A DNA stretch of 64,000 nucleotides from a marine bacterium AO1-C (GTDB lineage: Bacteria; Bacteroidota; Bacteroidia; Cytophagales; Microscillaceae): positions 488,341-552,340 of the forward strand of contig MLAY01000008.1 in NCBI GenBank assembly GCA_001890965.1, written 5' to 3'. Below, one piece after another: positions 8,931 through 63,590 of this stretch; within the stretch, counting starts at the first letter, position 1, and every line of letters begins with the position of its first letter. The translations under genes and the position numbers were made by a program. The notes beneath the pieces are model-generated. The model was not told where the DNA came from. It saw only the letters and a list, made by a program, of their open reading frames with translations, and made no database searches.

Positions 8931-9863
8931 TTATTTCACTTTTTTAGCATATCGCTTTAGTTGTTTCTTGCCAATTTTATGAAACTGACGAAACTTGATA
9001 CCATTCAAGCCAGCAATACTAAAAGCTCTAGGGGCTACATACAAGTATATCTTGCCATCCTTGGTACTTGAAATAAACTGTATATGCATAGCGCCTCTAC
9101 CAGATTCTATGCTTGCTATATGGATAAAAGCATATTGGTCACTTCTGGTTTTTAGTGCTTCATCAATCATAGGAGCATCGGCAAGTTTATAAGGAAAAGG
9201 ATAATAATCCTTGATTTTGGCGATATCCAGCTTTTTAGAGAGTAATTCCTTATCTATCAATAGTGTTTTATTTTTTAGTTCAGGTCCATTCTTTGGCGCT
9301 TGTCTGCGATAAAAAGTGGCCAAGCTTCTATGCTTAGGATTCTCTACTAAATAATTCAATAGATACTGTAGTTGCATCAATCCATAAATGGTATTTCTTT
9401 CTAAAGAGTAATTGGCAGAAAGGTTCGTTTTTATCAATGATTTTCTACCATTTAGGGTAATCATCAAAGTAGCAATGGTATTGGCCACATAAGGATCTCT
9501 TGTATACTTGCTACGCATGAGTTTGCTTCTTTCATTGTAGAGCGGATTACGGGTTTTTCTGATTGCCCATTCGGTAAACACACTGTAAGTCAATAAAGCG
9601 TACTTTGCTTTATCCTTTTTCATCATCCCCTTCACCTTCGCTGCAGGTACATATTCTATGCTTTCATTAAAAGTCCAGTATTTTTTGACCAATTGCTGAA
9701 ACATCTCACTGTTTTTCTTACCCTTTCCTTTGACTATAGGGATTAATAAAACTCTCCTCTTAATGTCCAATGCCTCCTTGCGTGAAGTATTAGCTGATTG
9801 CCCGTAAGCAAAGCTGCTCAAAAAGATAAGTAGCACTGGCACACTAAATTTTAATTTGATCAT
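8931..9863 (-). CDS. Hypothetical secreted protein (signal peptide), no recognised domain
   Basis: The tracked ORF begins at a TTG. The ATG at 9863 gives MIKLKFSVPVLLIFLSSFAYGQ, a signal peptide. The gene is preceded by regulatory element copy A. Confidence 0.5.
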   Translation of the reverse strand: MIKLKFSVPVLLIFLSSFAYGQSANTSRKEALDIKRRVLLIPIVKGKGKKNSEMFQQLVKKYWTFNESIEYVPAAKVKGMMKKDKAKYALLTYSVFTEWAIRKTRNPLYNERSKLMRSKYTRDPYVANTIATLMITLNGRKSLIKTNLSANYSLERNTIYGLMQLQYLLNYLVENPKHRSLATFYRRQAPKNGPELKNKTLLIDKELLSKKLDIAKIKDYYPFPYKLADAPMIDEALKTRSDQYAFIHIASIESGRGAMHIQFISSTKDGKIYLYVAPRAFSIAGLNGIKFRQFHKIGKKQLKRYAKKVK

Positions 9864-9973
9864 GATTGTCTTGAATAAATTATTTGAAATTCTCAAAGTA
9901 TCATTACAGATTTCAATAAATTATACCTGTAATAACAGATTATTTGATAGTAAAGAAAAGGGAATATGTTGAA

Positions 9974-10050
9974 AGGGCGTTGGACATATTGTGCAAATAC
10001 TTGGGCATATCATTCACCCAACATAAGTCACTCATAATCAAATACTTGCC
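9974..10050 (-). promoter_or_regulatory. Conserved ~77-bp element, copy A, with two TTGG(A/G)CATAT direct repeats 21 bp apart
   Basis: Aligns at about 80% identity with copy B (10839-10914). Half-sites sit at 9980-9989 and 10001-10010. On the minus strand it lies about 110 bp upstream of the 8931..9863 gene. Confidence 0.5.
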
Positions 10051-10257
10051 AATAATAAGTAGGTAAACAGGCAGCAAATTTTAAAAAAGCATTGCTCAGT
10101 TTGATCTATGACTATACAAGGTAACAGCAATGCTTTTTTTTATCTATGAATTAATTAATAGGGAAATCATTTTTATTGAAATACTATCATTGACCACTTA
10201 TTTATGACTTCCCTTATTTTGATAATCGTTGACCACAAACTTTCCTATTGGATAGGA

Positions 10258-10464
10258 TTAAAGATTTTGGCGATCACTTCCACCACTACAACCACAGCCG
10301 CCACCAGAGCTACTTGACCCACTCGTTTTTCCTGTGTTAGTGGGATTGATTTTGGCCTTCTTTTTTTGACTTGGAGAACCATCTCGCTCAGTCTCACCAC
10401 CTTTTATGTTTGATTGTTGTTGGTGGGTCAGTTGTTGCATTCTAAAGTTGCTGAAGCTTTTCAT
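10258..10464 (-). CDS. GG-leader precursor peptide (Bacteroidetes GG-motif natural-product/bacteriocin precursor type), Gly/Ser/Cys-rich core
   Basis: Leader MKSFSNFRMQQLTHQQQSNIKGG ends in a double glycine. The core ends in a GSSSSGGGCGCSGGS tract. It lies 47 nt downstream of the neighbouring GG-leader peptide. Confidence 0.55.
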   Translation of the reverse strand: MKSFSNFRMQQLTHQQQSNIKGGETERDGSPSQKKKAKINPTNTGKTSGSSSSGGGCGCSGGSDRQNL

Positions 10465-10511
10465 ATGTGTTGTGTTTAGTTAATTTAATAATGTTTGTGT
10501 CTTAAGAATCA

Positions 10512-10718
10512 CTACTTCCAGGGACCAGGATAGATTTCGTGTCCACAAGTAGCTCTGCATCTTCTGAGTCCTTCTTTGTCATCTCCCCAGTATTTTTCGC
10601 ATTCTCCTGCTGGCTTCAATTTATCAGGACAACGTACAAGAGATTTTCCTCCCTGGATTGTTTGCAACTCTTTTGTAGAAATTTTGTACTTACCAAACTT
10701 TGCTTTAAGCATGCTCAT
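10512..10718 (-). CDS. GG-leader precursor peptide with a 4-Cys core
   Basis: Leader MSMLKAKFGKYKISTKELQTIQGG, then a core containing four Cys (RCPDK...GECEKYW...RCRATCGH). Preceded by regulatory element copy B. Confidence 0.55.
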   Translation of the reverse strand: MSMLKAKFGKYKISTKELQTIQGGKSLVRCPDKLKPAGECEKYWGDDKEGLRRCRATCGHEIYPGPWK

Positions 10719-10838
10719 AATACATATTATTTAAAAGGTTCAATAGTATCAAATAACTCCTGAATCATAGTGTCAGTCACATAGTTATTTGGTTTGTTTT
10801 GTGATTTTGTGTTGCAAATGAAAGGAAAAAAAGACGAG

Positions 10839-10914
10839 AGGGCTTGGACATATCTTGCAAAAATATTGGACATATCATTCAAGCAAAATAAGCCACTGAT
10901 AATCAAACAATTAC
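10839..10914 (-). promoter_or_regulatory. Conserved ~77-bp element, copy B, with two TTGGACATAT direct repeats about 22 bp apart and embedded TTTG / TATTTTTG promoter-like boxes
   Basis: Half-sites at 10844-10853 and 10866-10875. On the minus strand the sequence reads TTTG-n18-TATTTTTG between and around the half-sites. It sits about 120 bp upstream of the peptide gene start at 10718. Confidence 0.5.
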
Positions 10915-10948
10915 AGCATGTTAAGAGTAAAATAAAGTGCAGAATTGG

Positions 10949-11941
10949 CTAAATACTTCTAATAGAACTCGGAGTTATTCCGTATTTTTTCTTGAAAGCA
11001 TTGGTAAAATGTCCTGGGTGACTGTAGCCTAACAGGTGAGCAATTTCGGAAGTAGGTTTGTCAGTATAGCGAAGTAGGTTACGCGCTTTTTCCATTTTGA
11101 AGTCTAGCAAAAATCCAAAAATGGTATTATTGAATACCTCTTTGAAGCCTTTCTTCAACTTAAAGTCGTTGGTGCCTACCATTTTGGCCAATTCATAAAT
11201 TGTAGGAGGATTATCGGCACGAGCTACCAGGATTTCTTTAGCCTCATGAATTTTATTCAAATCCTTGGTATTATTTATATACGTCTTGGCTTTGATACTA
11301 GGAGAGCTTTGGGCCTGTTCTACCTGCAATGCCAATAATTCCAGCACTTTGGCTTCAATAAAAATACGTTGTAGGTTTCTATCCAGCGGTTGGTTGAGCA
11401 ATTCGTGGATAATCATACGCATTTCGGGGGTAATAGGAAGGTTGGTATCTGCCAACATCACAGGTTCCTGTCGAACCACTTTTTCATAAAAATCGGCTAA
11501 TAAGTACGGATAACGAGCTACCAGTTGTTCGAAGTATTCACGAGTAAAACTCACTTCAAAGTTTTGATAAGCTTGTTTCCCCCGAAAGTTAAAAACCCCA
11601 CTTTTGCTAGGGGTATAACATAAAGTTTGCTGATTTTCTTGAATGATCACTTCGTCTCCAAAGTCATCCATCTTACCAGAAACAGTTCCCTTTAGGTGAA
11701 AACTCATTTCTACCAAATCTTCGTCGGCCTGACCACGAATGCGCAAATCATCATTGAAAGTAAAGCCTCCTCCCAACACGAAAATACCATTTAGGTTGTA
11801 TTGCTTAAAGTTGCCGTTACCAAAACCAAAATCTAAAAAACCGCCATCTCGATATACTTTTGGATCAGAAGCTGGGACAATGGGCAAATCAAACTCGTGT
11901 AGAGTTTCAGGGACTTGATCAACATGCAAACTAAACTTCAT
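10949..11941 (-). CDS. AraC-family transcriptional regulator with an N-terminal sensor domain
   Basis: C-terminal AraC HTH pair (YELAKMVGTNDFKLKKGFKEVF...IAHLLGYSHPGHFTNAFKKKYGITP). Confidence 0.8.
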   Translation of the reverse strand: MKFSLHVDQVPETLHEFDLPIVPASDPKVYRDGGFLDFGFGNGNFKQYNLNGIFVLGGGFTFNDDLRIRGQADEDLVEMSFHLKGTVSGKMDDFGDEVIIQENQQTLCYTPSKSGVFNFRGKQAYQNFEVSFTREYFEQLVARYPYLLADFYEKVVRQEPVMLADTNLPITPEMRMIIHELLNQPLDRNLQRIFIEAKVLELLALQVEQAQSSPSIKAKTYINNTKDLNKIHEAKEILVARADNPPTIYELAKMVGTNDFKLKKGFKEVFNNTIFGFLLDFKMEKARNLLRYTDKPTSEIAHLLGYSHPGHFTNAFKKKYGITPSSIRSI

Positions 11942-12089: not shown

Positions 12090-12815
12090 ATGCGACACAG
12101 TTCTGATCGATTGACTGCCAAACAGTCACCTCTTTTGTTCCAAAAAGGCATTCAAACTCGCCAAACTACTAATAACTTCTTGCCACCTTATAATACTACG
12201 TTAGCTGCTCAATTGGGCGTTTCACTCGATTATAGCGTATTAGACAAAATCGTTCTCGATTTTATCACTCAAAATCCTTCGGGTACCATCATCAACCTGG
12301 GCGCTGGTCTGGATAACCGTTTTTTCCGCCTGGATAATGGCCAAATCCAGTGGTTTGATATAGATGTTCCTGAAACTATTGAACTAAGACGTACTTTTTT
12401 TGAAGCCAACGACCGTTACCAATTGATTCCTACTAATATTTTTGGAAGGAATTTGCTCAAATACCTCCCTCCTACTTCTAATAGCTTGATTATCATAGAA
12501 GGTCTGGCGATGTATTACTCAGAAAGCAAAATAAAAACCCTGGTACAGAATATTTGCCGTCACTATAGCTCGTGTGAAATCATTTTGGAGGTTATTCATC
12601 CAGCAGTAATGGATAGTGTGGCCTATGCTACCCCAAACTTACCCTTAAAATGGGCAGTAAGTAATTTAAATCAGGTAGAAAAGTGGCATAAAAAGTTATT
12701 TCTAGCTCAGGAATTTCATCATTTATCAAGCGATTCAACTTCTAAGAGTCAATATTTCCATAATATTACTCAACCTCACGAAATGATTAAACTAGGCCAC
12801 TTTAAAGTAGGATAG
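12090..12815 (+). CDS. Class I SAM-dependent methyltransferase (LCM/TcmP-like O-methyltransferase family)
   Basis: IINLGAGLDNRFFRL...WFDIDVPETIELRRTF...IIIEGLAMYY pattern characteristic of the leucine carboxyl methyltransferase/TcmP family. Confidence 0.65.
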   Translation: MRHSSDRLTAKQSPLLFQKGIQTRQTTNNFLPPYNTTLAAQLGVSLDYSVLDKIVLDFITQNPSGTIINLGAGLDNRFFRLDNGQIQWFDIDVPETIELRRTFFEANDRYQLIPTNIFGRNLLKYLPPTSNSLIIIEGLAMYYSESKIKTLVQNICRHYSSCEIILEVIHPAVMDSVAYATPNLPLKWAVSNLNQVEKWHKKLFLAQEFHHLSSDSTSKSQYFHNITQPHEMIKLGHFKVG

Positions 12816-15490: not shown

Positions 15491-18400
15491 ATGGCCGATA
15501 AAAAACTCTTTGCCCTGTGTGTAGGCATCAATGAATATCCTGAAGGTGTAAGCAACCTGGCAGGTTGTATTACTGATGCTGAAAACTGGAAAAACTTTCT
15601 GGAAACCCACTATCAAAAATCCCTTTCTCCCGAAATACTTTTACTTACCAATGCTCAAGCTACCCGAGAGGGGTTCATAGACGCTTTTCGCAATCATTTG
15701 GGCCAGGCCAGAGATGGTGATACGGTTTTTCTTCATTATAGTGGACATGGCTCCCGAGAAAAAGCTCCTCCAGCTTATTTAAAGTTTTTTCCAGATGGTA
15801 TGAATGAGACCCTGGTACTGAGTGATAGCAGGGCTAAAGATGGCGAAGGTAATTATATAGGCCACGATTTAGCTGATAAAGAGCTAGGAAAACTTTTAGA
15901 AGAGGTAATTGCAGATAAACCCAACTTAAATCTCATAGTATCACTCGATTGTTGTCATTCAGGATCAGGTACCCGTGATGCAGCTGGCCTTTCTGCTTCT
16001 CGTCTTACAGGTGACCGTGCCGATGAAGCTCGCTCATTTGATACTTACATTCCTGGTATTTTTACAGGTGGTGAGGTAGTGCCTCCTTCTAGTAAACACA
16101 TCCTATTAGCTTCTTGCAACAAATATCAAAAGGCCTGGGAAACCAAAGAGAATACGGGGCTCTTTACTACTTCTGCATTGGCAATACTTGATAAGTATGG
16201 TGCACAAACAACTTTTGCCGACTTGTATACACGTACTCGCACCATTATGCGACAAACGACTAATATTCAAGATCCTCAATTAGAAGTACACGAAAAATAC
16301 AATGCAAATCAAGTTATTTTCACTGGCGGAACTCTGGAAGGAGCAGGACAGTACACCCGAAGAATTTACCAAATAGATAATACTTGGAAATTAGACTTTG
16401 GGGCAATTCATGGGATGCCTAATGATAAAACTATTGAGCTGGCTGTGTATGAAAATGCTGATGATTTACAACAGCAAAAATCTTTGGGAAATGCTAAATC
16501 TATAGGGGTAACAACAGATAAAACTACGCTCGAACTTGATTTTGAAGCTGATACCAATCAAGAATATATTGGAGAGTTTCTTACCCCTCCCACTACTCCC
16601 ATGAATGTATTCATTTATGGAGTAAAAGAAGGTCAGGAATTTATTCAAAAAACGTTCGAAGAACATCCAAGTCTAAATTTTACATTAACCATAGTAGATG
16701 ACCAAGATGGCTATACTTTCGATTCAAAATATATAGAAAAAGATAACCCTCATCCATATTATGGTGAAATCAAAATTATTGATCAGCAAGGCCAATTGAT
16801 AACCCCCAAAGCAGGCGATTATAATCTTGTTGCGTACTCTGATGGTTATTTCATATTGGATGAAAACAATCGCCTGATTCAAGGGTGTAAAAATGGTTAT
16901 GATGATGTTGGTGCAATCAAAATATTATTTCAAGCTCTAGACAAAATCGCCAACTGGGAAAATTTAACGGTACTTCAAAACAAAGCTCCTAAAATCAATC
17001 CAGACAAAATAGCGTTTAACCTTTATGTAGGAGAAGATGAAAAGCAAATTGAGGGAACAGAATTCACCACTTCTCTAGTAGAAGTAAATGATCCCACAGT
17101 ACCTTGGCCTAGTATTCCCTTTGAATTACGATGTAAAAACAACACTAATCAGGGGCTTCATATTTCACTGATATACCTAGATGATAATTACACTGTAGTA
17201 CCACTTTATAATGATTACATTGAATCTAAAACAGGAGAAACTACGCTCATCAGTGATGGATTCTATATACTAAGTAACAATAAAGCAGAAAGTGGTAATG
17301 TATATGATGAAGAGTTGGACGAATATCGTTTTAATCAAAGTAACATGATATTCAAGTTACTGGTAAGTACTGAACGTTTAGACGACTTTACCCTAGAACA
17401 AGAAGGAATTGATATAGGCCATATTGCTTACAATAGAGTATTGGCTTCTAGAGTTAAAGGTGGGATCACAAAACCTGTGAAAAACGATTGGTTTACCAAA
17501 ACAATTAATACATATACGATACGCCAACGTTCTAAGTTAAGTAAAAATAACTTAGAACTAGGAGAAACAAAACAACTGGCAATCAAAGGTAATGAACAAG
17601 TCTCCGCTAATGTAAAACTCAGTACCAGCAACCCTGGAAGTCGCAGTACCGACAAAACCTCCCTGATGACAAGTTTGCTTGAACAACAAGCGGGGAATTT
17701 GATCAACTTTGGCGGGGAACTGGGAGGCTCGAATATTTTGGAGATTAATGATATCCAAGGTGCCGATGAGCTTGCTGAAAATCCACTGGAAATCACCCTT
17801 AATGAAGAAGTTTCTGAGGATGAATTATTACTTCCTTTCACCTTTGATGGAGAACACATTCTCTCCATTGGCGAAAGCGAAACACAGGCAGACGGCAGCA
17901 CTAACATTGCCATTGATGAAGTTCCTGCCATAGAAGAAGGAAGCCGTAGTTTAGGCAAATCACTCAAGTTGGCTTTCTATAAAATTGCGCTCAAACGTCA
18001 CCCCGATAAGATTTACCAATTGGCTTGGGTAGAATATTTGAACACCCAGGATGAAGATGGTAACGAAGAAATAGATCGCCACCGAGATAATGATGAAGTG
18101 GCTGAAAAAGTAGCCAGTGCCAATAAGGTTTTGCTGTTGTTGCATGGCATTATTGGTGACACCGAAGACATGGCCATTGCCGTAAAAGATATAGCAGCTG
18201 AAAAAGGCTATGATTTGGTATTGAGCTTTGACTACGAAAACCTAAACTCTTCTATTGAAAAAGATATTTCCTGGTCTTTGAAAGACCAACTCGAACGCGT
18301 GGGCTTCAAAGCTGATGATGGCAAGGAATTGCACATTTTAGCCCAAGGCATGGGGTGTTTGGTAGCTCGTTGGATGGTGGAACGCAGGGGAGGCAATAAA

Positions 18401-18919
18401 TTTGTAGACCGGATGATTTTGGTAGGCCCACCCAATGCTGGCTCAGTCTTAGGAAACCTGGAATCTTACCGCAAAATGGCCACCATGGTATTAGGCGTAG
18501 TAGCCAATATAGCTTTGCCGTTTTTAGGTTGGGCTGGTGGCTTGCTCAAAGGAGTAAAAACTGCCTTAAAACAAGGGCAAAAGTTAACAACTACTCTGGC
18601 TGAAATGCACGAAAGCTCTACTTTTATTCGGGACTTGAACGATAGTGATGATCCAGGTGTGCCTTATGCCATTGTAGCAGGAGATGTTCGCAGTTATGAA
18701 CCAACCGATGGTAGTAACTTCTCTAAATTTCACGAAAAAATGTCAGCCAAGTTGGGCACATTTGTCAATGGAGGGGATGCCAACGATATGATTGTAGATT
18801 TTGCCTCTATGAAACGAGCTGGTAAAAACAGTCAGGTAGAAATTACCAAGGTAGTTTGTCATCATTTAAATTATTTTCACGAAGAAGCGAGCTTAGAGGC
18901 TATTCAAGGCCTTTTGTGA
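15491..18919 (+). CDS. Large multidomain protein: N-terminal caspase-like (peptidase C14) domain, ~600-aa central region, C-terminal alpha/beta-hydrolase-like domain with a degenerate nucleophile elbow
   Basis: Caspase His-Cys dyad motifs HYSGHGS and SLDCCHSGSG. The C-terminus has LLLLHGIIGDTEDM and AQGMGCLVA, where Gly sits at the usual GxSxG Ser position. Confidence 0.75.
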   Translation: MADKKLFALCVGINEYPEGVSNLAGCITDAENWKNFLETHYQKSLSPEILLLTNAQATREGFIDAFRNHLGQARDGDTVFLHYSGHGSREKAPPAYLKFFPDGMNETLVLSDSRAKDGEGNYIGHDLADKELGKLLEEVIADKPNLNLIVSLDCCHSGSGTRDAAGLSASRLTGDRADEARSFDTYIPGIFTGGEVVPPSSKHILLASCNKYQKAWETKENTGLFTTSALAILDKYGAQTTFADLYTRTRTIMRQTTNIQDPQLEVHEKYNANQVIFTGGTLEGAGQYTRRIYQIDNTWKLDFGAIHGMPNDKTIELAVYENADDLQQQKSLGNAKSIGVTTDKTTLELDFEADTNQEYIGEFLTPPTTPMNVFIYGVKEGQEFIQKTFEEHPSLNFTLTIVDDQDGYTFDSKYIEKDNPHPYYGEIKIIDQQGQLITPKAGDYNLVAYSDGYFILDENNRLIQGCKNGYDDVGAIKILFQALDKIANWENLTVLQNKAPKINPDKIAFNLYVGEDEKQIEGTEFTTSLVEVNDPTVPWPSIPFELRCKNNTNQGLHISLIYLDDNYTVVPLYNDYIESKTGETTLISDGFYILSNNKAESGNVYDEELDEYRFNQSNMIFKLLVSTERLDDFTLEQEGIDIGHIAYNRVLASRVKGGITKPVKNDWFTKTINTYTIRQRSKLSKNNLELGETKQLAIKGNEQVSANVKLSTSNPGSRSTDKTSLMTSLLEQQAGNLINFGGELGGSNILEINDIQGADELAENPLEITLNEEVSEDELLLPFTFDGEHILSIGESETQADGSTNIAIDEVPAIEEGSRSLGKSLKLAFYKIALKRHPDKIYQLAWVEYLNTQDEDGNEEIDRHRDNDEVAEKVASANKVLLLLHGIIGDTEDMAIAVKDIAAEKGYDLVLSFDYENLNSSIEKDISWSLKDQLERVGFKADDGKELHILAQGMGCLVARWMVERRGGNKFVDRMILVGPPNAGSVLGNLESYRKMATMVLGVVANIALPFLGWAGGLLKGVKTALKQGQKLTTTLAEMHESSTFIRDLNDSDDPGVPYAIVAGDVRSYEPTDGSNFSKFHEKMSAKLGTFVNGGDANDMIVDFASMKRAGKNSQVEITKVVCHHLNYFHEEASLEAIQGLL

Positions 18920-56284: not shown

Positions 56285-57589
56285 TTAATAAAGTTCATCA
56301 TTAAGCTGAAGCTTCAACTTTTGGGCTGAAGCCCAAGCCTTGATCACCTTCATCTCTTTTTCGGAGGGCATGCGGTTATAGGCCCCTCGAGCTTGCACCA
56401 CTCGATGATCATCTAGTACCTCAATAGTGATGATCTTGGTAGTGGGGCGAAACAAGTCTTGCTTTACCAGACTCCAGATTGAGCAATACCCCGAAGTACA
56501 TCGGTTGAGATAAGAAGACACACAATGACTCATCTGTCGTCCTTCTTCAAACAATGACTGACTATCAGTGATTTGTCGAATCGTATACCATTGCAATGAG
56601 CGTCGTTTGGCAAAATAATGGAACTCGTCCATGGTAGAATAGTTCCAATGAACCACCGCCTGACCATATTGCTCCATCACTCGCTGGTACTGCTGAGCAT
56701 CGTTTAGCCAACGGTGCCATTCTCCAATCATGCGCATCAATGAACCATAAGTTCGCCCCTTTAGGCTAAACTCAGTAGTGCGGGTTTTCTGGCGTACCAA
56801 CTCCCCTGCTTCGTTGAGTTGCAAAGGGGTTTCGTATCGCTGGGCTACGGTAAAGTCTACCAATGGCCCCACCTGGTGATTCTCCAAAAAATCCGGGTGG
56901 TTGATCAAAAATTGAATCAACTCTAGCCAAAACGCTGTATCCTGGGTAACTTGATCCAACTTGGCTACCATTAGCGCTTTAAACAACGCCATACTACCTC
57001 CCAAAGCGATGATTTGCCCATAATACAATGCCTGATAAACACTGTATTCCACAGGAGACTCCAAAAAATGATGCGCCATTTTTTTGGTTAAGCTCACAGG
57101 TAAATCCTTGGCCTTACGGATGTTATGTCCGTTGACCAAATGTAGGTACCATTCTATGGTTTGCTTATTCCCGGTTTTCCAGGCTTGATTCATAAACATA
57201 GGTACCGAATAATGGCCAAACAGGAACTGTAGTAAATCTTTCAACAAAAAATTAGACGCCTCTCGCCAACTTGCCCCTCGGGGGAGTTCTATAGTAGGTT
57301 CCCAGTCTTTAGGATCACGAATCCAGTATTTGGCATAACGATATGCATTCGACAAAGCAGTACCTCGATAATAAATCTGGTAGGCATTGTCTCGAGCAAT
57401 GTCTTTGACAAACTGGTAAAACTCTTTTTGATCGCAACGACGGCGATGCCACCAGGTAGTTTGCAGCAATTCGGCAATGTTTTTAAAATCATTGGGACGA
57501 TTGCTGATGGCTACTTTACGATGGCTCAAATCATACAAAATGGTCTCAAGTTGAGCCCGGGTATAAGCACGTTGTTTTTGTTTTGTCAT
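56285..57589 (-). CDS. Uncharacterised protein, member 1 of a four-gene tandem paralog family (conserved W.RDPK.W.P, FM.QAW, YGQ..A.GGS and M.HCV..Y...C..G..SIW blocks)
   Basis: Aligns along its length with 57953..59491, 59754..61019 and 61456..62805. Shared blocks: WIRDPKDWEP, FMNQAWKTGNKQTIEWYLHLVNGHNIRKAKDLP, YGQIIALGGS and QMSHCVSSYLNRCTSGYCSIWSL. Confidence 0.6.
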   Translation of the reverse strand: MTKQKQRAYTRAQLETILYDLSHRKVAISNRPNDFKNIAELLQTTWWHRRRCDQKEFYQFVKDIARDNAYQIYYRGTALSNAYRYAKYWIRDPKDWEPTIELPRGASWREASNFLLKDLLQFLFGHYSVPMFMNQAWKTGNKQTIEWYLHLVNGHNIRKAKDLPVSLTKKMAHHFLESPVEYSVYQALYYGQIIALGGSMALFKALMVAKLDQVTQDTAFWLELIQFLINHPDFLENHQVGPLVDFTVAQRYETPLQLNEAGELVRQKTRTTEFSLKGRTYGSLMRMIGEWHRWLNDAQQYQRVMEQYGQAVVHWNYSTMDEFHYFAKRRSLQWYTIRQITDSQSLFEEGRQMSHCVSSYLNRCTSGYCSIWSLVKQDLFRPTTKIITIEVLDDHRVVQARGAYNRMPSEKEMKVIKAWASAQKLKLQLNDELY

Positions 57590-57609
57590 GATTATAATCC
57601 AGCTTTGAT

Positions 57610-57650
57610 CCGCCAGATTATAACCATCTTATGAGGTCAGAATCTGGCGG
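57610..57650 (-). promoter_or_regulatory. Perfect 10-bp inverted repeat (ccgccagatt...aatctggcgg, 21-nt spacer) 20-60 nt upstream of the start codon of paralog 1
   Basis: Seen directly in the sequence. Also a GATTATAA(T/C)C direct repeat at 57590-57600 and 57616-57626. Confidence 0.35.
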
Positions 57651-57952
57651 GGTAAAACATTGATGCTTGGGTAATTTGCATGAGTAGTTCATTCAAATTA
57701 CCATTGGCGCCTTCACCTTCAGCATCAGGTTTTGTTTCTTGTTTTTGTTTTCTTTTGCTCAATTTTATTTTTCGTTTTAATTACTGATAGTCAATCTTTT
57801 AGCATTTATTTGATTATCATATTTCAAACTTACTCACTCACTACGCAAGCTTTTTGCGCAGCAAATAATTTTTCTAAAAATTTTCATCTCAGCAAAGGAT
57901 TCTAAACTATCGCCTTGCGCTCATTTTTCACTTTTCATTTTTAGTTTTTCAC

Positions 57953-59491
57953 TTAAGAATAGTCAATAGACAAATCCAGGTTTTCTTGCTTACTCCAATG
58001 TTGAATAATTGATAATTCGCTGTCAGTAGGTTCGCGATTTTGCTTACCTTTTACTGTCCATATTTTGTCCTCATTGCCCAGCTCTATAGTCACGCATTTT
58101 TCTTCTCGACCATCATAAAAAATCCGACTCATGGCCCAAATAGAACTAGTTCCTTCCTGGCATTTATAAGCGTAACCTCCCACACAATGCGACATTACTT
58201 TGCCTTCCAACCATAGCTCATAGTTGTTGATCAGCTGAATGATGCGATAACGTGGCAAAAACGGCAAAGGCTGGTATTCAAAATCCTGCTTTTTACGTGT
58301 TTCCCAGCTTGTCAAATTAGCCTTGAACTCATCGCCCAAAATATTCAATGCATCGTGCCAATCATTAACTACCTTCATCAATGACTTTGGAGTACGCTTT
58401 TGAAGCGTAAAGTCAGGTTCCAAAGCAGTTTCTTTTCTAATACCACCTTCTCGGGTGTACACTCGCTGCCCATAGTATTTGCGCGCATTGATAAAGTTGA
58501 CAATTCGTGGCAACTCTCCCTGATCTACCAATTCGGGATAACGCATCAGGAAATGCACCAACTGAGCAAAAAAATCAGGATCGCGTTGGATCCGTTTTAC
58601 CGAACATTTATATAGTTCGTCGCTCAAAGCTACACTGCCTCCCAACCCTCGAACTTGCCCATATAACAAAGCCTGATTGATGGCGTAATAGCTAGGAGCC
58701 TTGGTAAAATAATGCGTCATTTTAGTGGTCAGTTTGGCTGGAACCGACTTTACCCGACGAAGGTTGTGTCCTTTGGCCAGAAAAATGAACCACAAAATAT
58801 GCTGATGATCATTTGTATCCCAGGCCTTATGCATAAAGGCTGGTACAGAATATTTTACAAACAAATGATTAATCAACTCTTTTATTAATTGAGGATGTAC
58901 TTTGCCCCAACTTACTTCTTGAGCTGCATCCCAATGAATGCTTGGTTTCCAATCTTCAGGATTACGTAGCCAATGCCTCCGATATTTGAACAACACATAC
59001 AAAATATTGTGTTGGTATAAAACTGGCACATTGCCAGGACGCAGTATATCTTTTAGAAAATAGAAAAACTGTTGTTTTTGATGTCCAGGAAGCCATTGGG
59101 TAGTTTGTAACATTTTACCAATATTCTGAAACATCGGCGAAAGCTCATGATACTTTACTTCATTTAAATACAATGCATGTAAAATATCGATTGCCCGAGA
59201 GTACCCTTCGTAAGACAATTGGCGACGCTGTCCTCTTTTTTTGCCTTGCTTCCGAAGTTGCCCTTTCTTTTCCGCGTTGGTCTTCCCTACCGTTTTTCTA
59301 TATGCTCTTTGTTTATTTCTTCTCGAATTCCTTGAGTAATTACGACTAGCCATGATTACCAAATTGGGAGCAAGCCAGGATGACTCACTCCATTGAAGAG
59401 GTAATGATGTTGAATAAAGTATTCGACGTATCTGTATGATCATTGAATCACCCAATATGCAGATATGGCCGAAAACCGCTCCCTTACCCAA
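57953..59491 (-). CDS. Uncharacterised protein, member 2 of the four-gene paralog family (longer, highly basic N-terminus)
   Basis: WLRNPEDWKPS, FMHKAWDTNDHQHILWFIFLAKGHNLRRVKSVP, YGQVRGLGGS and VMSHCVGGYAYKCQEGTSSIWAM. The N-terminal ~100 aa are Arg/Lys-rich. Confidence 0.6.
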   Translation of the reverse strand: MGKGAVFGHICILGDSMIIQIRRILYSTSLPLQWSESSWLAPNLVIMASRNYSRNSRRNKQRAYRKTVGKTNAEKKGQLRKQGKKRGQRRQLSYEGYSRAIDILHALYLNEVKYHELSPMFQNIGKMLQTTQWLPGHQKQQFFYFLKDILRPGNVPVLYQHNILYVLFKYRRHWLRNPEDWKPSIHWDAAQEVSWGKVHPQLIKELINHLFVKYSVPAFMHKAWDTNDHQHILWFIFLAKGHNLRRVKSVPAKLTTKMTHYFTKAPSYYAINQALLYGQVRGLGGSVALSDELYKCSVKRIQRDPDFFAQLVHFLMRYPELVDQGELPRIVNFINARKYYGQRVYTREGGIRKETALEPDFTLQKRTPKSLMKVVNDWHDALNILGDEFKANLTSWETRKKQDFEYQPLPFLPRYRIIQLINNYELWLEGKVMSHCVGGYAYKCQEGTSSIWAMSRIFYDGREEKCVTIELGNEDKIWTVKGKQNREPTDSELSIIQHWSKQENLDLSIDYS

Positions 59492-59723
59492 TTTAGCTTA
59501 CCTCTTTGGCTCCATCAGGAAGGGAGGAGATTGGTATCTTTTCGCCTGAAACACATACCATCTTCTGAGCCTTGAACAATTTGGTTTAGCATTCTTTTAT
59601 TGAATTATAAATTGTTAATGATGAATTATTAATTAGTGTGTATTTGTAATGCGATGTTAAAAACCTACCATCTTTGGTTATGATTTCGTGTCTCTAAAAT
59701 CGCGTTGCAAACACTCGTATAAA

Positions 59724-59750
59724 GTAGCACGCATTTACATGCGTGCTAGT
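59724..59750 (-). terminator. Hairpin immediately after the stop codon of paralog 3 (tagcacgcat-ttac-atgcgtgcta)
   Basis: Perfect 10-bp stem with a 4-nt loop starting 4 nt below the stop codon. On the minus strand it is followed by a U-rich stretch (uacuuuauac). Confidence 0.5.
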
Positions 59751-59753
59751 CAT

Positions 59754-61019
59754 TTATTCTAGTTCGCAGTAATTGGCTACTTTTAGCCTTTCACGCTTTG
59801 CCCATTGACGAACGATTTTGCTTTCGTCTACTCCAGGCATACTGTTCGCCTTACCCCGTACCTGTACAATGGTTTCGCCCTCATGCAACTGAATTGTCAA
59901 TAATGGCTTTACACCGTTACAGGTGGTAGCAGTCAGCGACCAAATAGATGTATCGCCCGATTCACAACGATGCAAGTAAGAACCTACACAGTGTCGCATT
60001 ACTTCTCCCTCACGCTCAATCGCATAGTTGTTGGTCAACTGCATAATGCGATAAATCGGTGATTTTTGATCGGCTTTATTGGCTCGATACAAAAAGTTAC
60101 GCACCTTGTTGGGAGTCCAGGTAACCAATTTTCCCGCACTTATTCCATAGCGATTACTATTTTCCCAATCTTTGACCTCACGCATTAACGACTTGGCAGT
60201 TTTACCTTTTAGGCTAACTTTTCGAGTCACTTGTGGCCCTAGTTGCCCATAGGCATCTATTTGTACCTTCACCAACCTGCGATCGTTCAAATAATTCACA
60301 ATGCGATCTACTTGTTGGTCTTCTTCCAGTTCAGGATTATTGATGAACAATCTCAATAGTGTCAACCACATTTCCTGATCCTGACACAAGTAACTTGTGG
60401 AAAGCAAGCTCAGCTTTTTTACCAGCGATTTTCGCCCTCCCATGGCCATTACTTGCCCATATATTAAGGCATCTTCAATGCGGTACTCAGTCGGAGCTTG
60501 CAAGAATTCATGCGCCATCTTTTTTGTCAAATGTGCCTGCATTCCTGGAGCTGTTCTTATGTTTTGGCCTTGTGCCAAGTGAATAAACCAACTGATATGT
60601 AGTGGGTCTATATCTTGCCACGCCTGATACATAAATTGTGGTACTTCGTAGCGAACAAATAAGTAGTCTATCAGATCTTGTTGCAAAATTTCCCCAGCAT
60701 TACCAATGCTTTTTGGCATCCAGCCTTTAGGAGACTTTAGCCAATGCTTGGTTTGACCATATATGGCCAACAAAGCCTCCCCCTGGTAAAATACCCGATA
60801 GTAATGACGACGAGCTATGGCACTTAAAAATTCATAAAACCCACGTTTGTCGCCTGGACGATCTTTCCATTCGCCTCGCATCAGCTTTCCTACTTTGTAG
60901 TAAGGAGAAAAGCTATCTAACCGATTCAATTTCAGCTTCTTGCGGTAAAGCGCCTCTAATGTTTTTCGAGGGCGACTCAAATCCGCTTTTTTAATTTGAG
61001 AACCCATAATTCTTACCAT
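59754..61019 (-). CDS. Uncharacterised protein, member 3 of the four-gene paralog family
   Basis: WLKSPKGWMPK, FMYQAWQDIDPLHISWFIHLAQGQNIRTAPGM, YGQVMAMGGR and VMRHCVGSYLHRCESGDTSIWSL. Confidence 0.6.
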   Translation of the reverse strand: MVRIMGSQIKKADLSRPRKTLEALYRKKLKLNRLDSFSPYYKVGKLMRGEWKDRPGDKRGFYEFLSAIARRHYYRVFYQGEALLAIYGQTKHWLKSPKGWMPKSIGNAGEILQQDLIDYLFVRYEVPQFMYQAWQDIDPLHISWFIHLAQGQNIRTAPGMQAHLTKKMAHEFLQAPTEYRIEDALIYGQVMAMGGRKSLVKKLSLLSTSYLCQDQEMWLTLLRLFINNPELEEDQQVDRIVNYLNDRRLVKVQIDAYGQLGPQVTRKVSLKGKTAKSLMREVKDWENSNRYGISAGKLVTWTPNKVRNFLYRANKADQKSPIYRIMQLTNNYAIEREGEVMRHCVGSYLHRCESGDTSIWSLTATTCNGVKPLLTIQLHEGETIVQVRGKANSMPGVDESKIVRQWAKRERLKVANYCELE

Positions 61020-61455
61020 TTTGAATGCGGCAAGGAACCTTTCAGGGTAAATGGTCAGGGGTTAATGATGAATTTCCTGAACAGTATTTATCCAATCAAA
61101 GCCATTGCTTGGTAAGTATCTGGGATACTCAAACCTCGCCGCGATTAAGAAGTATTGTTATTCATTTTGAAATTTATGTTGTACCCCTCAGGGGGTATGC
61201 CTGCATCACCTCGTGAGTCAGACTTGTTTTGTTTAAATAATTTGATGTTGGTCATGTATATTTTTGATTTTAAGTGCTTTCAATAAATATGGCTAAATGG
61301 TTTCATTGTTCTATGGTCTCGTGATGCATTGCAGTACCATATCACTACTTCATAATAAAATATGAATTATCTTGAACTACTCATTAGCCATATCTAAAGC
61401 ACTGATTAATAACAATTTTAAACTTTATCGTAAACTCTGAACTACTGACTACCTA

Positions 61456-62805
61456 CTAGTAGTCGTCGTCCAAAGTAAGCTGCTCGGCATCCATCCAAAT
61501 GCCGATAATGTCTAGTATTTCTTGAGAAGGCGGCTCGTTGTTTTTGGCTTTGACTTGCAAAACCAGATGATCGGTCATGCCTACCTCAATGGTTACCAAC
61601 CGCTTGGGCTTATGGTATTGTCGCGATTTCAACGTCATCATAAAAATGGAGCTGTCACCCTCGATGCATTCTTCCACATAAGTAGCCACACAGTGATTCA
61701 TCGCTTTGCCTTCTTCTTTCAGCTCAAAGTTGGATACCAACTGAGTAATACTGTAGGTTTCCAAACGCCCCCCTCGTTGGGTAACGTGCTTAAAGTCTCG
61801 AATTGGAACCGCTCTCCATTGGATGAATTCGTCTTCTCCCAGTTTGTTGAGCAATTCACGCTCTCGATCCAATTCCTCCTGCCATTTTTCCACTGACTTG
61901 TTCAGCGAATCCATCGTACGCCCCTTGATCCTCAATTGAGGTTTGGGCGGTGGCAACATTTCCCATTTACCTTCTCGATTTCGGGTACGACGCGGAAGAA
62001 ATTTTTGGTGATAGATGTACTCTACTACCTTGTTCATATCTTCAGCTTCGAACCCTTTATTTTCGGTAAAAAATTGTAAAACTGTAGACCAGAAATCCTT
62101 GTGTTCCAGCATTCTGGCTACCGAAGTTACATCCAAGTCATCTACCAGCTGTTCGGTTCCTCCCATTCCCATAATTTGCGCATAACGCAATGCCTTTTGG
62201 ATGGTATAATCCTCAGGCGCTATCGTAAAATAGTGCGCCATTCTTTTGGTAAGTTCAATAGGCAAACCAGGGGCAGTACGAATGTTCAGCCCACTTCCCA
62301 AATGGATAAACCAGCGAATGTATCGTTCGTTGAGTTCATCCCAGGCCTGATTCATGAACTTAGGCACCGGAAACTTTGCAAACAAGTAGTGAATGAGGTC
62401 CAGTGCCAATTCTTCGCTATCGCAAGTGTTTTCATCTGGCATCCACCCTTTGGGGTCACGTGCCCATTGTGGCGCATAGTGAAAAACGTAGCGTAGCGTT
62501 TTGGCTTCCTCGTACACCAAAGTGTAATCTTTACGGGCAATGTCTTTCAAAAACTGACTAAATCCTTCTCGTTTGCCTCGGGTGTAGTGCCACTTATTTT
62601 GTAAAACCTCCCCTACTTCCCGGAAATGAGAGTACTGAGGTAGCTCTTTTACCGGAACCTTTCTGCGAAACAAGGCTTCTATCATTTTAGAAGGCTTGCG
62701 ATGTAACTTTTCAATTTTGGCTTCTCTTTGCTCCTTTCGGAGTCTTTTTTCTTGTGCGGCTTGTTCGGCCTCGTAGTGTCGTAGTGTTGTGCGAATATTA
62801 GCCAT
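61456..62805 (-). CDS. Uncharacterised protein, member 4 of the four-gene paralog family
   Basis: WARDPKGWMPD, FMNQAWDELNERYIRWFIHLGSGLNIRTAPGL, YAQIMGMGGT and AMNHCVATYVEECIEGDSSIFMM. Confidence 0.6.
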   Translation of the reverse strand: MANIRTTLRHYEAEQAAQEKRLRKEQREAKIEKLHRKPSKMIEALFRRKVPVKELPQYSHFREVGEVLQNKWHYTRGKREGFSQFLKDIARKDYTLVYEEAKTLRYVFHYAPQWARDPKGWMPDENTCDSEELALDLIHYLFAKFPVPKFMNQAWDELNERYIRWFIHLGSGLNIRTAPGLPIELTKRMAHYFTIAPEDYTIQKALRYAQIMGMGGTEQLVDDLDVTSVARMLEHKDFWSTVLQFFTENKGFEAEDMNKVVEYIYHQKFLPRRTRNREGKWEMLPPPKPQLRIKGRTMDSLNKSVEKWQEELDRERELLNKLGEDEFIQWRAVPIRDFKHVTQRGGRLETYSITQLVSNFELKEEGKAMNHCVATYVEECIEGDSSIFMMTLKSRQYHKPKRLVTIEVGMTDHLVLQVKAKNNEPPSQEILDIIGIWMDAEQLTLDDDY

Positions 62806-63131: not shown

Positions 63132-63590
63132 CTATTTGCTCTTGCCTATTTTTTGCAATTGAGCAAGCATGATGTCTTGTTCCCGTTCCATATTCGCGAG
63201 CAAGTGATCTTTCAATAAGGTCACCATTTCTTCGAATGATTGTCTGCGGGTAAATTTCTCAACTACTTGCTTGGTATGGGCATCTATCAACAAGATAAAC
63301 CCCGTACCCGCGTGCTTTTTCACGCTACGCTCTACGCCAAGGGCGGTTGTGAGTAGATCGGATTGGTACTGAGAGGTTCGGTTGGTGAAGTTTAAATCCA
63401 CAAATAAAACTTCTCGGCCGTCAAAGCGATTTTTCAAGTCATTGAAAACGGGTACCATCACTTTACTCGCTGCACACCAGTCAGCGTGTCGTTTTACAAC
63501 TAATAATCTGGCAGCAAATCTAGGCTTGCTAGGTTTTTTCACCACACTAGTTTGCTGAGGCTTTTTAGAGGTGGTAAATAGACTAAACAT
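63132..63590 (-). CDS. Hypothetical protein, possibly thioredoxin-like fold
   Basis: HADWCAASK resembles a WCxxC/S redox motif context. Otherwise unassigned. Confidence 0.3.
   Translation of the reverse strand: MFSLFTTSKKPQQTSVVKKPSKPRFAARLLVVKRHADWCAASKVMVPVFNDLKNRFDGREVLFVDLNFTNRTSQYQSDLLTTALGVERSVKKHAGTGFILLIDAHTKQVVEKFTRRQSFEEMVTLLKDHLLANMEREQDIMLAQLQKIGKSK

Follow-up and report, generated by a model that had tools for sequence, protein, structure and literature searches.

Among the described systems closest to the peptides considered here are the bacteroidetocins, four-cysteine toxins with a double-glycine (GG) leader that have been proposed as class IIf bacteriocins of Bacteroidales and are encoded together with a thiol oxidoreductase (Coyne et al. 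2019, PMC6671954). For Bacteroidales GG-motif peptides, a consistent pairing with C39 peptidase transporters has been reported (PMC10352776). Two further groups invite comparison: the GG-motif RiPP precursors of Bacteroidota recognized by TIGR04149 (GG_sam_targ_CFB), short peptides that are modified by radical-SAM enzymes and whose leader has the form MKK...GG, and the leaders of class II bacteriocins and competence pheromones (TIGR01847; ComC, PF03047), which are processed by C39-containing ATP-binding cassette (ABC) transporters. Here we analyze a locus from the marine bacterium AO1-C (Microscillaceae), contained in a 64-kb stretch of DNA (hereafter the window, whose positions serve as coordinates), in which two short genes, pepB and pepA, lie between the gene for an AraC-family regulator (araC) and a gene for a 310-residue secreted protein. 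The locus was compared with loci from related genomes and metagenomes (L001–L025) and with peptides and proteins retrieved by a profile search (P0002–P0025). The explanation that we favor, with moderate confidence, is that these genes form a small AraC-controlled regulon, housed in a slot of variable content that araC and thiL border in Microscillaceae, with peptide processing taking place in trans. The literature on strain AO1-C yielded nothing relevant.

pepB and its four-cysteine peptide family

The initial annotation of this DNA described two 68-residue open reading frames (ORFs) on the minus strand, 47 nt apart, with leaders ending in IQGG and IKGG, one core carrying four cysteines and the other a sequence tract at its end. 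This anatomy is present as described, at positions 10512–10718 (pepB, BKI52_24840) and 10258–10464 (pepA, BKI52_24835); like the 310-residue neighbor (BKI52_24830), both are annotated as hypothetical proteins. Both reading frames are also present in relatives. Codon comparison of pepB with its orthologues gave proportions of nonsynonymous and synonymous differences (pN and pS) of 0.20 and 0.8, with synonymous sites saturated, and pepA showed a ratio of nonsynonymous to synonymous substitution rates (dN/dS) of 0.15–0.26 against two orthologues. In all orthologue comparisons of the two genes, insertions and deletions preserve the frame and changes are commonest at third codon positions. Given the low dN/dS or pN and the in-frame indels, pepA and pepB are protein-coding genes under purifying selection rather than chance ORFs.

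The pepB leader (MSMLKAKFGKYKISTKELQTIQGG, ending in TIQGG) comprises 24 residues, or 22 if translation starts at Met3, and is followed by a cationic, hydrophilic core of 44 residues with four conserved cysteines. As read from the sequence, it has the canonical double-glycine pattern, with hydrophobic residues at −4 (I), −7 (L) and −12 (I) and an acidic residue at −8 (E) before GG. A leader hidden Markov model (HMM) built solely from pepB relatives outside Microscillaceae scored pepB at 25.6 bits (E = 7e-7), its sole match among the 1360 six-frame segments of the window. Weak matches to ComC and bactofencin models were also obtained. A sequence search of the Protein Data Bank (PDB) with the pepB core found nothing significant.

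A profile of pepB and P0002 was searched with HMMER (hmmsearch) against 1.84 billion cluster representatives and retrieved short GG-leader peptides of 57–87 residues (E = 8e-16 to 5e-6). Three long repetitive proteins in the output (P0016, P0024 and P0025) were rejected as repeat-driven artefacts. The alignment defines a leader of the form MKxLKxKFGKFxxSxKxLKxIKGG and a core of the form CPxxLxxxGxCExYWGDDxxGxxxCxxTCG (more loosely, CPxxL..GxCExYWGxDxxG..CxxTCG), with invariant columns F8, G23, G24, G38, C40, W44, D47, C54 and C58. Within this family, pepB matches the profile over leader and core and retains the four cysteines, W44 and D47. No Pfam or NCBIfam model provides a curated name for the family.

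Usable genomic context for the family came from two independent organisms; four other members lie on contigs too short to be informative, and P0015 is absent from the records. In the first organism, P0018 (loci L013–L016) has as neighbors an OmpA-thioredoxin protein, fusions of Peptidase_C39 with VKOR, an ABC ATPase and an HlyD/AprE-type protein, and it belongs to an array whose GG-leader peptides have one leader in common and are each followed by a signal-peptide protein. This array (L013, 1–9917; L014, 1–8287) contains at least five GG-leader peptide genes with one leader (MKKFEKFAGKKMS..EMK.VKGG) and unrelated cores. Its C39-VKOR fusions have no ABC domains, which suggests that leader cleavage and disulfide formation are combined. 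In the second organism, what comes after P0022 (L021, GCA_013299115.1) is an OmpA-domain protein, one with a thioredoxin domain and a C39-VKOR fusion. Because of this C39-VKOR and thioredoxin context and the match to the literature, the pepB family is best read as one of leader-cleaved, disulfide-bonded secreted peptides.

How does pepB compare with the described systems? It shares with the bacteroidetocins a GG leader and a Bacteroidota host, a mature part of similar length (44 residues versus about 42–48), four cysteines, presumably in disulfide bonds, and a positive net charge, and its relatives, as bacteroidetocins do, occur beside a C39 peptidase and thiol oxidoreductases. Bacteroidetocin leaders have 15–16 residues, as opposed to 22–24 in pepB; the peptidase-containing ABC transporter, transmembrane protein and thiol oxidoreductase of bacteroidetocin clusters are absent from the pepB window; C39 is fused to VKOR in the pepB relatives, not to an ABC transporter; and, unlike the bacteroidetocins, pepB has a strongly hydrophilic core and an adjacent AraC regulator with a defined operator. 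Thus, in a comparison of peptide lengths, cysteine count and gene content, leader length and gene cluster do not fit, and pepB cannot be filed as a bacteroidetocin.

The initial annotation had assigned the peptides to the Bacteroidetes GG-motif natural-product or bacteriocin precursor type and named TIGR04149 as a model to test; membership in that specific type was not supported. Neither window peptide matches the model at E ≤ 10, and the pepB relatives stay below its cut-off of 25 bits (17.9 for a 77-residue peptide of L005, 17.7 for P0018, 16.6 for P0023 and 12.6 for P0002). Moreover, there is no radical S-adenosylmethionine (SAM) gene, including SPASM maturases, beside any family member seen. 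With neither the HMM match nor the radical-SAM neighbor, pepB lies outside TIGR04149. The leaders of the TIGR01847 and ComC systems share with pepB the hydrophobic and acidic pattern before GG, whereas the pepB host is a Gram-negative member of Bacteroidota, no transporter is adjacent, and the regulator is of the AraC type instead of a two- or three-component system. By analogy, pepB would work like a double-glycine peptide of the class II or bacteroidetocin type.

The proposal of the initial annotation that the window lacks maturation and export genes was borne out, with qualification. A Pfam scan of about 60 window ORFs (every non-nested ORF of at least 110 residues and one of 79 residues) detected no C39 peptidase, ABC transporter, HlyD, VKOR, radical-SAM, YcaO or LanB/C domain, and the same domains were likewise absent from the flanks of the Microscillaceae relatives. 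The qualification concerns a methyltransferase gene divergent from araC and a borderline thioredoxin-like ORF 52 kb away (63132–63590). As the processing genes are absent from the 64-kb window, pepB is an orphan precursor for a distance of at least 10 kb to one side and 50 kb to the other. Orphan GG-leader precursors that depend in trans on peptidase transporters encoded far away are well known.

An AraC-family regulator and a repeated operator-promoter module

On the minus strand, the gene order is araC, a 230-nt intergenic region, pepB, the 47-nt gap, pepA, a 175-nt 3′ region, a second intergenic region and the gene for the 310-residue protein; thiL lies beyond the latter on the opposite strand. 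The AraC-family regulator described upstream of the peptide genes is encoded at 10949–11941 (minus strand, 330 residues). It scores 69.5 bits with HTH_18 and 34.4 bits with HTH_AraC, above the respective cut-offs of 33.6 and 26.6, which places its C-terminal part in the AraC/XylS family. Orthologues in the same synteny have 92, 84 and 65% identity (L001, L002 and L003, respectively). The N-terminal domain of about 230 residues matched no family, PDB matches were confined to residues 228–329 approximately, and a single-sequence AlphaFold2 model, with a predicted local distance difference test score of 39, was unusable for classification of this domain.

A 70-nt block is repeated in the locus, before pepB (10912 to 10844) and before the gene for the 310-residue protein (10047 to 9980). 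Its core consists of two direct 11-bp repeats (GATATGTCCAA) spaced 21–22 nt apart, and the whole can be written as RATWYRNCYMRK(N0-1)TWTTTGMAMRATATGKYCAA-N24-TTTG. Copy 1 (10815–10912, minus strand; repeat family D1/D2) comprises an upstream conserved block, the repeats at 10866–10876 and 10844–10854, a 24-nt spacer and TTTG (10815–10818), and it aligns with the promoters of L001, L002 and L005. Copy 2 (9951–10047, minus strand), which over 47 nt has 83% identity with copy 1, reads GATATGCCCAA ... AATATGTCCAA, followed by 24 nt and TTTA. In the 64 kb, paired repeats occur only at 9980–10010 and 10844–10875, with none expected from shuffled sequences. The presence of the same operator before the gene for the 310-residue protein, which the initial annotation had missed, makes that gene part of the unit.

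In L001 and L007 this module stands before pepA, and in L005 before the 300-residue protein gene as well as the first of the pepB copies; it also precedes homologues of the 310-residue protein in quite different neighborhoods (L023, L024/L025). The distance from the proximal repeat (ending in CCAAG) to TTTG (in one case TTTA) is exactly 24 nt in all nine distinct instances. The Bacteroidota −7 element is TAnnTTTG, and the TTTG of the module fits its 3′ half. The classical arrangement for AraC/XylS-type activators is a tandem of direct repeats spaced by two helical turns, of which the proximal one lies against the upstream element of the promoter. In AraC I1–I2 and in the RhaS and XylS systems, whose operators overlap the −35 region, as in the window, a C-terminal dual helix-turn-helix region goes together with a pair of direct repeats at a spacing of about two helical turns, the proximal one next to the upstream element of the promoter; the window differs from them in that its promoter is of the Bacteroidota −33/−7 type and the N-terminal domain of its regulator falls outside recognized families. 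The gene araC is adjacent in five lineage types, and its product is the obvious candidate for the protein that binds the repeats.

No operator was seen upstream of araC itself. A scan of metagenome contigs for more regulon members, with a 32-nt degenerate pattern, returned only L022, which is of the L002 type. In L005, the operator is retained while araC is not nearby, which suggests that the regulator is encoded elsewhere in that genome. Of the two possibilities raised in the initial annotation, orphan precursors processed in trans and a minimal regulated peptide locus, both fit the data, and the shared operator-promoter module strengthens the second.

The proximity of a regulator and peptides could also be taken to mean that pepA and/or pepB are exported pheromones whose accumulation feeds back, directly or indirectly, on AraC and switches the regulon on, so that the locus would serve quorum-sensing-like autoinduction and not antagonism. 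The regulator adjoins short GG-leader peptide genes, its operator precedes the peptide operon, and its N-terminal domain resembles no known ligand-binding family. The cores of both peptides are very hydrophilic, which is atypical of pore-forming bacteriocins, and pepA is the most constant neighbor of araC across lineages. However, neither an import system nor a sensor kinase is linked to the locus, araC lacks an operator of its own, and the pepB relatives reside in polymorphic arrays with paired secreted proteins, an arrangement that resembles conflict systems. To our knowledge, AraC-family peptide receptors are not established in Bacteroidota, which also counts against signaling, and we consider this explanation quite unlikely. 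A broader version, in which AraC, the operator, pepA and pepB, and the 310-residue protein make up a self-contained module for cell–cell communication or kin discrimination, with an AraC-type responder and a distant C39 exporter, appears very improbable to us; we know of no established peptide quorum-sensing-like circuit of this kind in Bacteroidota.

pepA, the 310-residue protein and the araC–thiL slot

The pepA leader (MKSFSNFRMQQLTHQQQSNIKGG) has a Q-rich N-terminus and ends in NIKGG, and the core contains SGSSSSGGGCGCSGGS followed by DRQNL. Among orthologues, a conserved ETERDGSPS block follows GG, then a variable middle part and a tail rich in G/S in which CGCxGGSDRxN[LF] is conserved. 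The leader and the nine residues past GG are conserved best and the middle least, with a renewed rise at the C-terminus. Orthologues were found in L001/L010–L012 (72% identity) and L007–L009 (67%), and the known 90%-identity clusters number three, one being that of pepA itself and the others those of two relatives; each comes from a Microscillaceae-type locus. A PDB sequence search with pepA gave nothing significant.

A perfect hairpin with 14-nt arms (10126–10139 and 10083–10096), followed by a T run, lies downstream of pepA and resembles an intrinsic terminator; it is maintained in L001 and L007, with one compensatory pair. Since there is no terminator-like site between pepB and pepA and the hairpin past pepA is conserved, the two genes probably form one transcript. 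The 3′ untranslated region (UTR) of pepA, which together with the hairpin (inverted repeat I4) spans 10083–10257 on the minus strand, is conserved between 10140 and 10257 about as well as coding sequence across the window, L001 and L007. Within it are two GTGGTCAAyGA boxes with a spacing of 39 nt, and it could serve as a further site for protein binding or as a 3′-UTR RNA element. An Rfam search of the whole window and the UTRs found nothing at threshold. An antisense ORF over the 3′ end of pepA (10204–10317, plus strand) is conserved in L001 and interrupted in L007, and was rejected as a gene.

The claim that the two genes form a pair of GG-leader precursors stands for pepB, with its leader pattern, its 25.6-bit score and its relatives beside C39 and thiol-oxidoreductase genes, and is not supported for pepA. 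The latter matched none of the GG-leader models of NCBIfam and Pfam, TIGR04149 and TIGR01847 included, and scored from −5.8 to 4.2 bits with the custom HMM. At consensus positions, its leader has only I at −4, L at −12 and GG. The leader does have the same length and framework, MKxFxxFxxxx[LM][ST]xx[EQ]xxN[IV]KGG, as the leaders of the L013/L014 array, a likeness that is weak by tblastn (33–35% identity over 23–27 residues, E = 0.09–0.18 in a small database). What argues for pepA as a putative GG-leader precursor is thus only the IKGG motif and a weak leader resemblance.

This leaves room for the alternative that pepA acts inside the cell, for example as a metal-binding or regulatory partner, with an incidental GG, and that only pepB is secreted. 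The failure with all GG-leader models, the lack of a hydrophobic residue at −7 and an acidic one at −8, as the consensus has them, and the confinement of relatives to three closely related lineages are consistent with it. The framework shared with the L013/L014 leaders argues in the other direction, as do the sharp drop in conservation, which falls after the block following GG, and the predicted co-transcription with a genuine GG-leader peptide. We regard an intracellular pepA as unlikely.

A different fate for pepA would be that of a ribosomally made peptide with post-translational modification (RiPP) whose Ser/Gly/Cys-rich core, including the conserved CGC, is modified by enzymes encoded elsewhere into lanthionine or azoline structures, possibly with a methyltransferase as a tailoring enzyme. 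The core (GSSSSGGGCGCSGGS, rich in Ser/Thr) is similar in composition to RiPP cores, the leader and first nine core residues are the most conserved, and the leader alone matches the class I lanthipeptide leader model NF038153 below threshold (13.4 bits, E = 0.067, cut-off 22); whole pepA does not match that model. A SAM-dependent methyltransferase of the LCM/TIGR00027 type is encoded divergently from araC (12090–12815, plus strand; Pfam LCM 38.9 bits) and is syntenic with it in every AraC-bearing relative (L001–L003, L007–L012). Yet the window contains no LanB/LanC, YcaO or radical-SAM gene, every model match is below cut-off, and the G/S tract varies in length and sequence among orthologues, with CGCxGGSDRxN[LF] as its only fixed part. 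No operator was found in the region between araC and the methyltransferase gene, which is not co-transcribed with the peptides; any link of this syntenic neighbor to the peptides is hypothetical. We consider the RiPP explanation distinctly improbable. In the favored reading, pepA is a genuine small protein of the AraC-controlled unit, possibly a second exported or modified peptide.

The second operator target, at 8931–9863 (minus strand), encodes a lysine-rich protein of 310 residues with a signal peptide (...FAYG|Q). Its nine relatives are all unannotated. The slot between araC and thiL varies in content among lineages: pepB, pepA and the 310-residue protein gene in the window; pepA alone in L001/L010–L012, with a decayed remnant of operator copy 2 past its terminator; pepA and a 311-residue protein gene in L007–L009; a 307-residue protein gene in L003; and the operator only in L002/L022. 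In L005/L006, where araC is not nearby, a 300-residue protein gene accompanies two tandem pepB copies, which are 66% and 47% identical to pepB. Hence pepB was seen solely alongside the gene for the 300/310-residue protein (window, L005/L006), which also occurs without pepB (L003, L007). This is the pattern expected of a toxin and its immunity-type partner; an immunity or accessory role of the 310-residue protein is a hypothesis only.

In L002 (7000–8380) and L022 (10455–11780), 1.3 kb before thiL has no recognizable ORF and contains short repeated elements; no remnant of pepA, pepB or the 310-residue protein gene was detected there. In L024 (1528–2058) and also in L025, the operator and the 310-residue protein homologue adjoin an ORF with sub-threshold matches to ADP-ribosyltransferase toxins (in L024, Scabin-like, 18.1 bits; Pertussis_S1, 16.4; Enterotoxin_a, 16.1; motif LYRGDSRLPQEIIRQGGFNPRGG). 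Small immunity-like ORFs lie beside the L024 ORF, which suggests that the region is a toxin–immunity island.

A working model and its setting

We propose that AraC binds the two direct 11-bp GATATGTCCAA repeats, the proximal one abutting the −33 region, and activates transcription. One module would drive a bicistronic pepB–pepA transcript that ends at the conserved hairpin terminator, and the other the gene for the secreted 310-residue protein. The pepB precursor would most likely be cut behind Gly24 by a peptidase of the C39 type whose gene lies elsewhere in the genome, and the core exported and oxidized to a cationic, two-disulfide peptide of 44 residues (about 5.1 kDa), with an extracellular action either as an antagonist of the bacteriocin kind or as a signal. 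The small protein pepA would be produced from the same transcript and, in sister lineages, would be the sole target next to araC. The 310-residue protein may be a protective (immunity-type) or accessory partner of pepB.

Several results weigh against this model. The binding of AraC to the repeats is a prediction from sequence; the genes for the 307- and 311-residue proteins of L003 and L007 have no recognizable operator, and in L002/L022 a perfect operator follows araC with no recognizable gene behind it. With established models, whole pepB narrowly misses the TIGR01847 cut-off (15.6 bits versus 15.7, although its leader alone reaches 18.3), scores 14.5 bits on NF047798 (cut-off 23.5) and has no TIGR04149 match, and pepA fails with all of them. 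The pepB core, with a grand average of hydropathy of −1.1, is very hydrophilic and in this respect differs from typical membrane-active class II bacteriocins. That processing occurs in trans is an assumption, as no C39 peptidase, ABC exporter or thiol oxidoreductase is encoded within the 64 kb. The co-occurrence argument for the 310-residue protein covers only six lineage types; hhalign found no homology between its family and the signal-peptide proteins that follow the GG peptides in L013/L014, and its structural model, searched with Foldseek against the PDB, returned nothing significant and hence no informative structural relative.

No compositional anomaly that would signal horizontal transfer was detected around the locus. 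Elsewhere in the window, an 857-residue protein (30714–33287, minus strand) with MVP_shoulder (107.5 bits), Vault_3 and SPFH/Band_7 matches is a bacterial homologue of the eukaryotic major vault protein. An 1142-residue protein (15491–18919, plus strand) has an N-terminal caspase domain (Peptidase_C14) and DUF7379, and is found in the same synteny in L007–L012. Four tandem paralogues of 434, 512, 421 and 449 residues (56285–62805, minus strand) each have a C-terminal PcfJ-like domain.

What is new at this locus is the conserved operator-promoter module and the membership of pepB in an uncurated four-cysteine GG-leader family; what is unusual is the absence of processing genes and the setting in an AraC-type mini-regulon. 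Current understanding is not overturned by these findings. If the model is correct, there would be an uncurated family of Bacteroidota four-cysteine double-glycine peptides with a recognizable core motif, linked elsewhere to C39-VKOR fusions, and the module would be among the few AraC-family operator-promoter modules defined by sequence in Cytophagia-type Bacteroidota. A single chromosomal slot would then exemplify how peptide genes come and go as cassettes that bring their own promoter.

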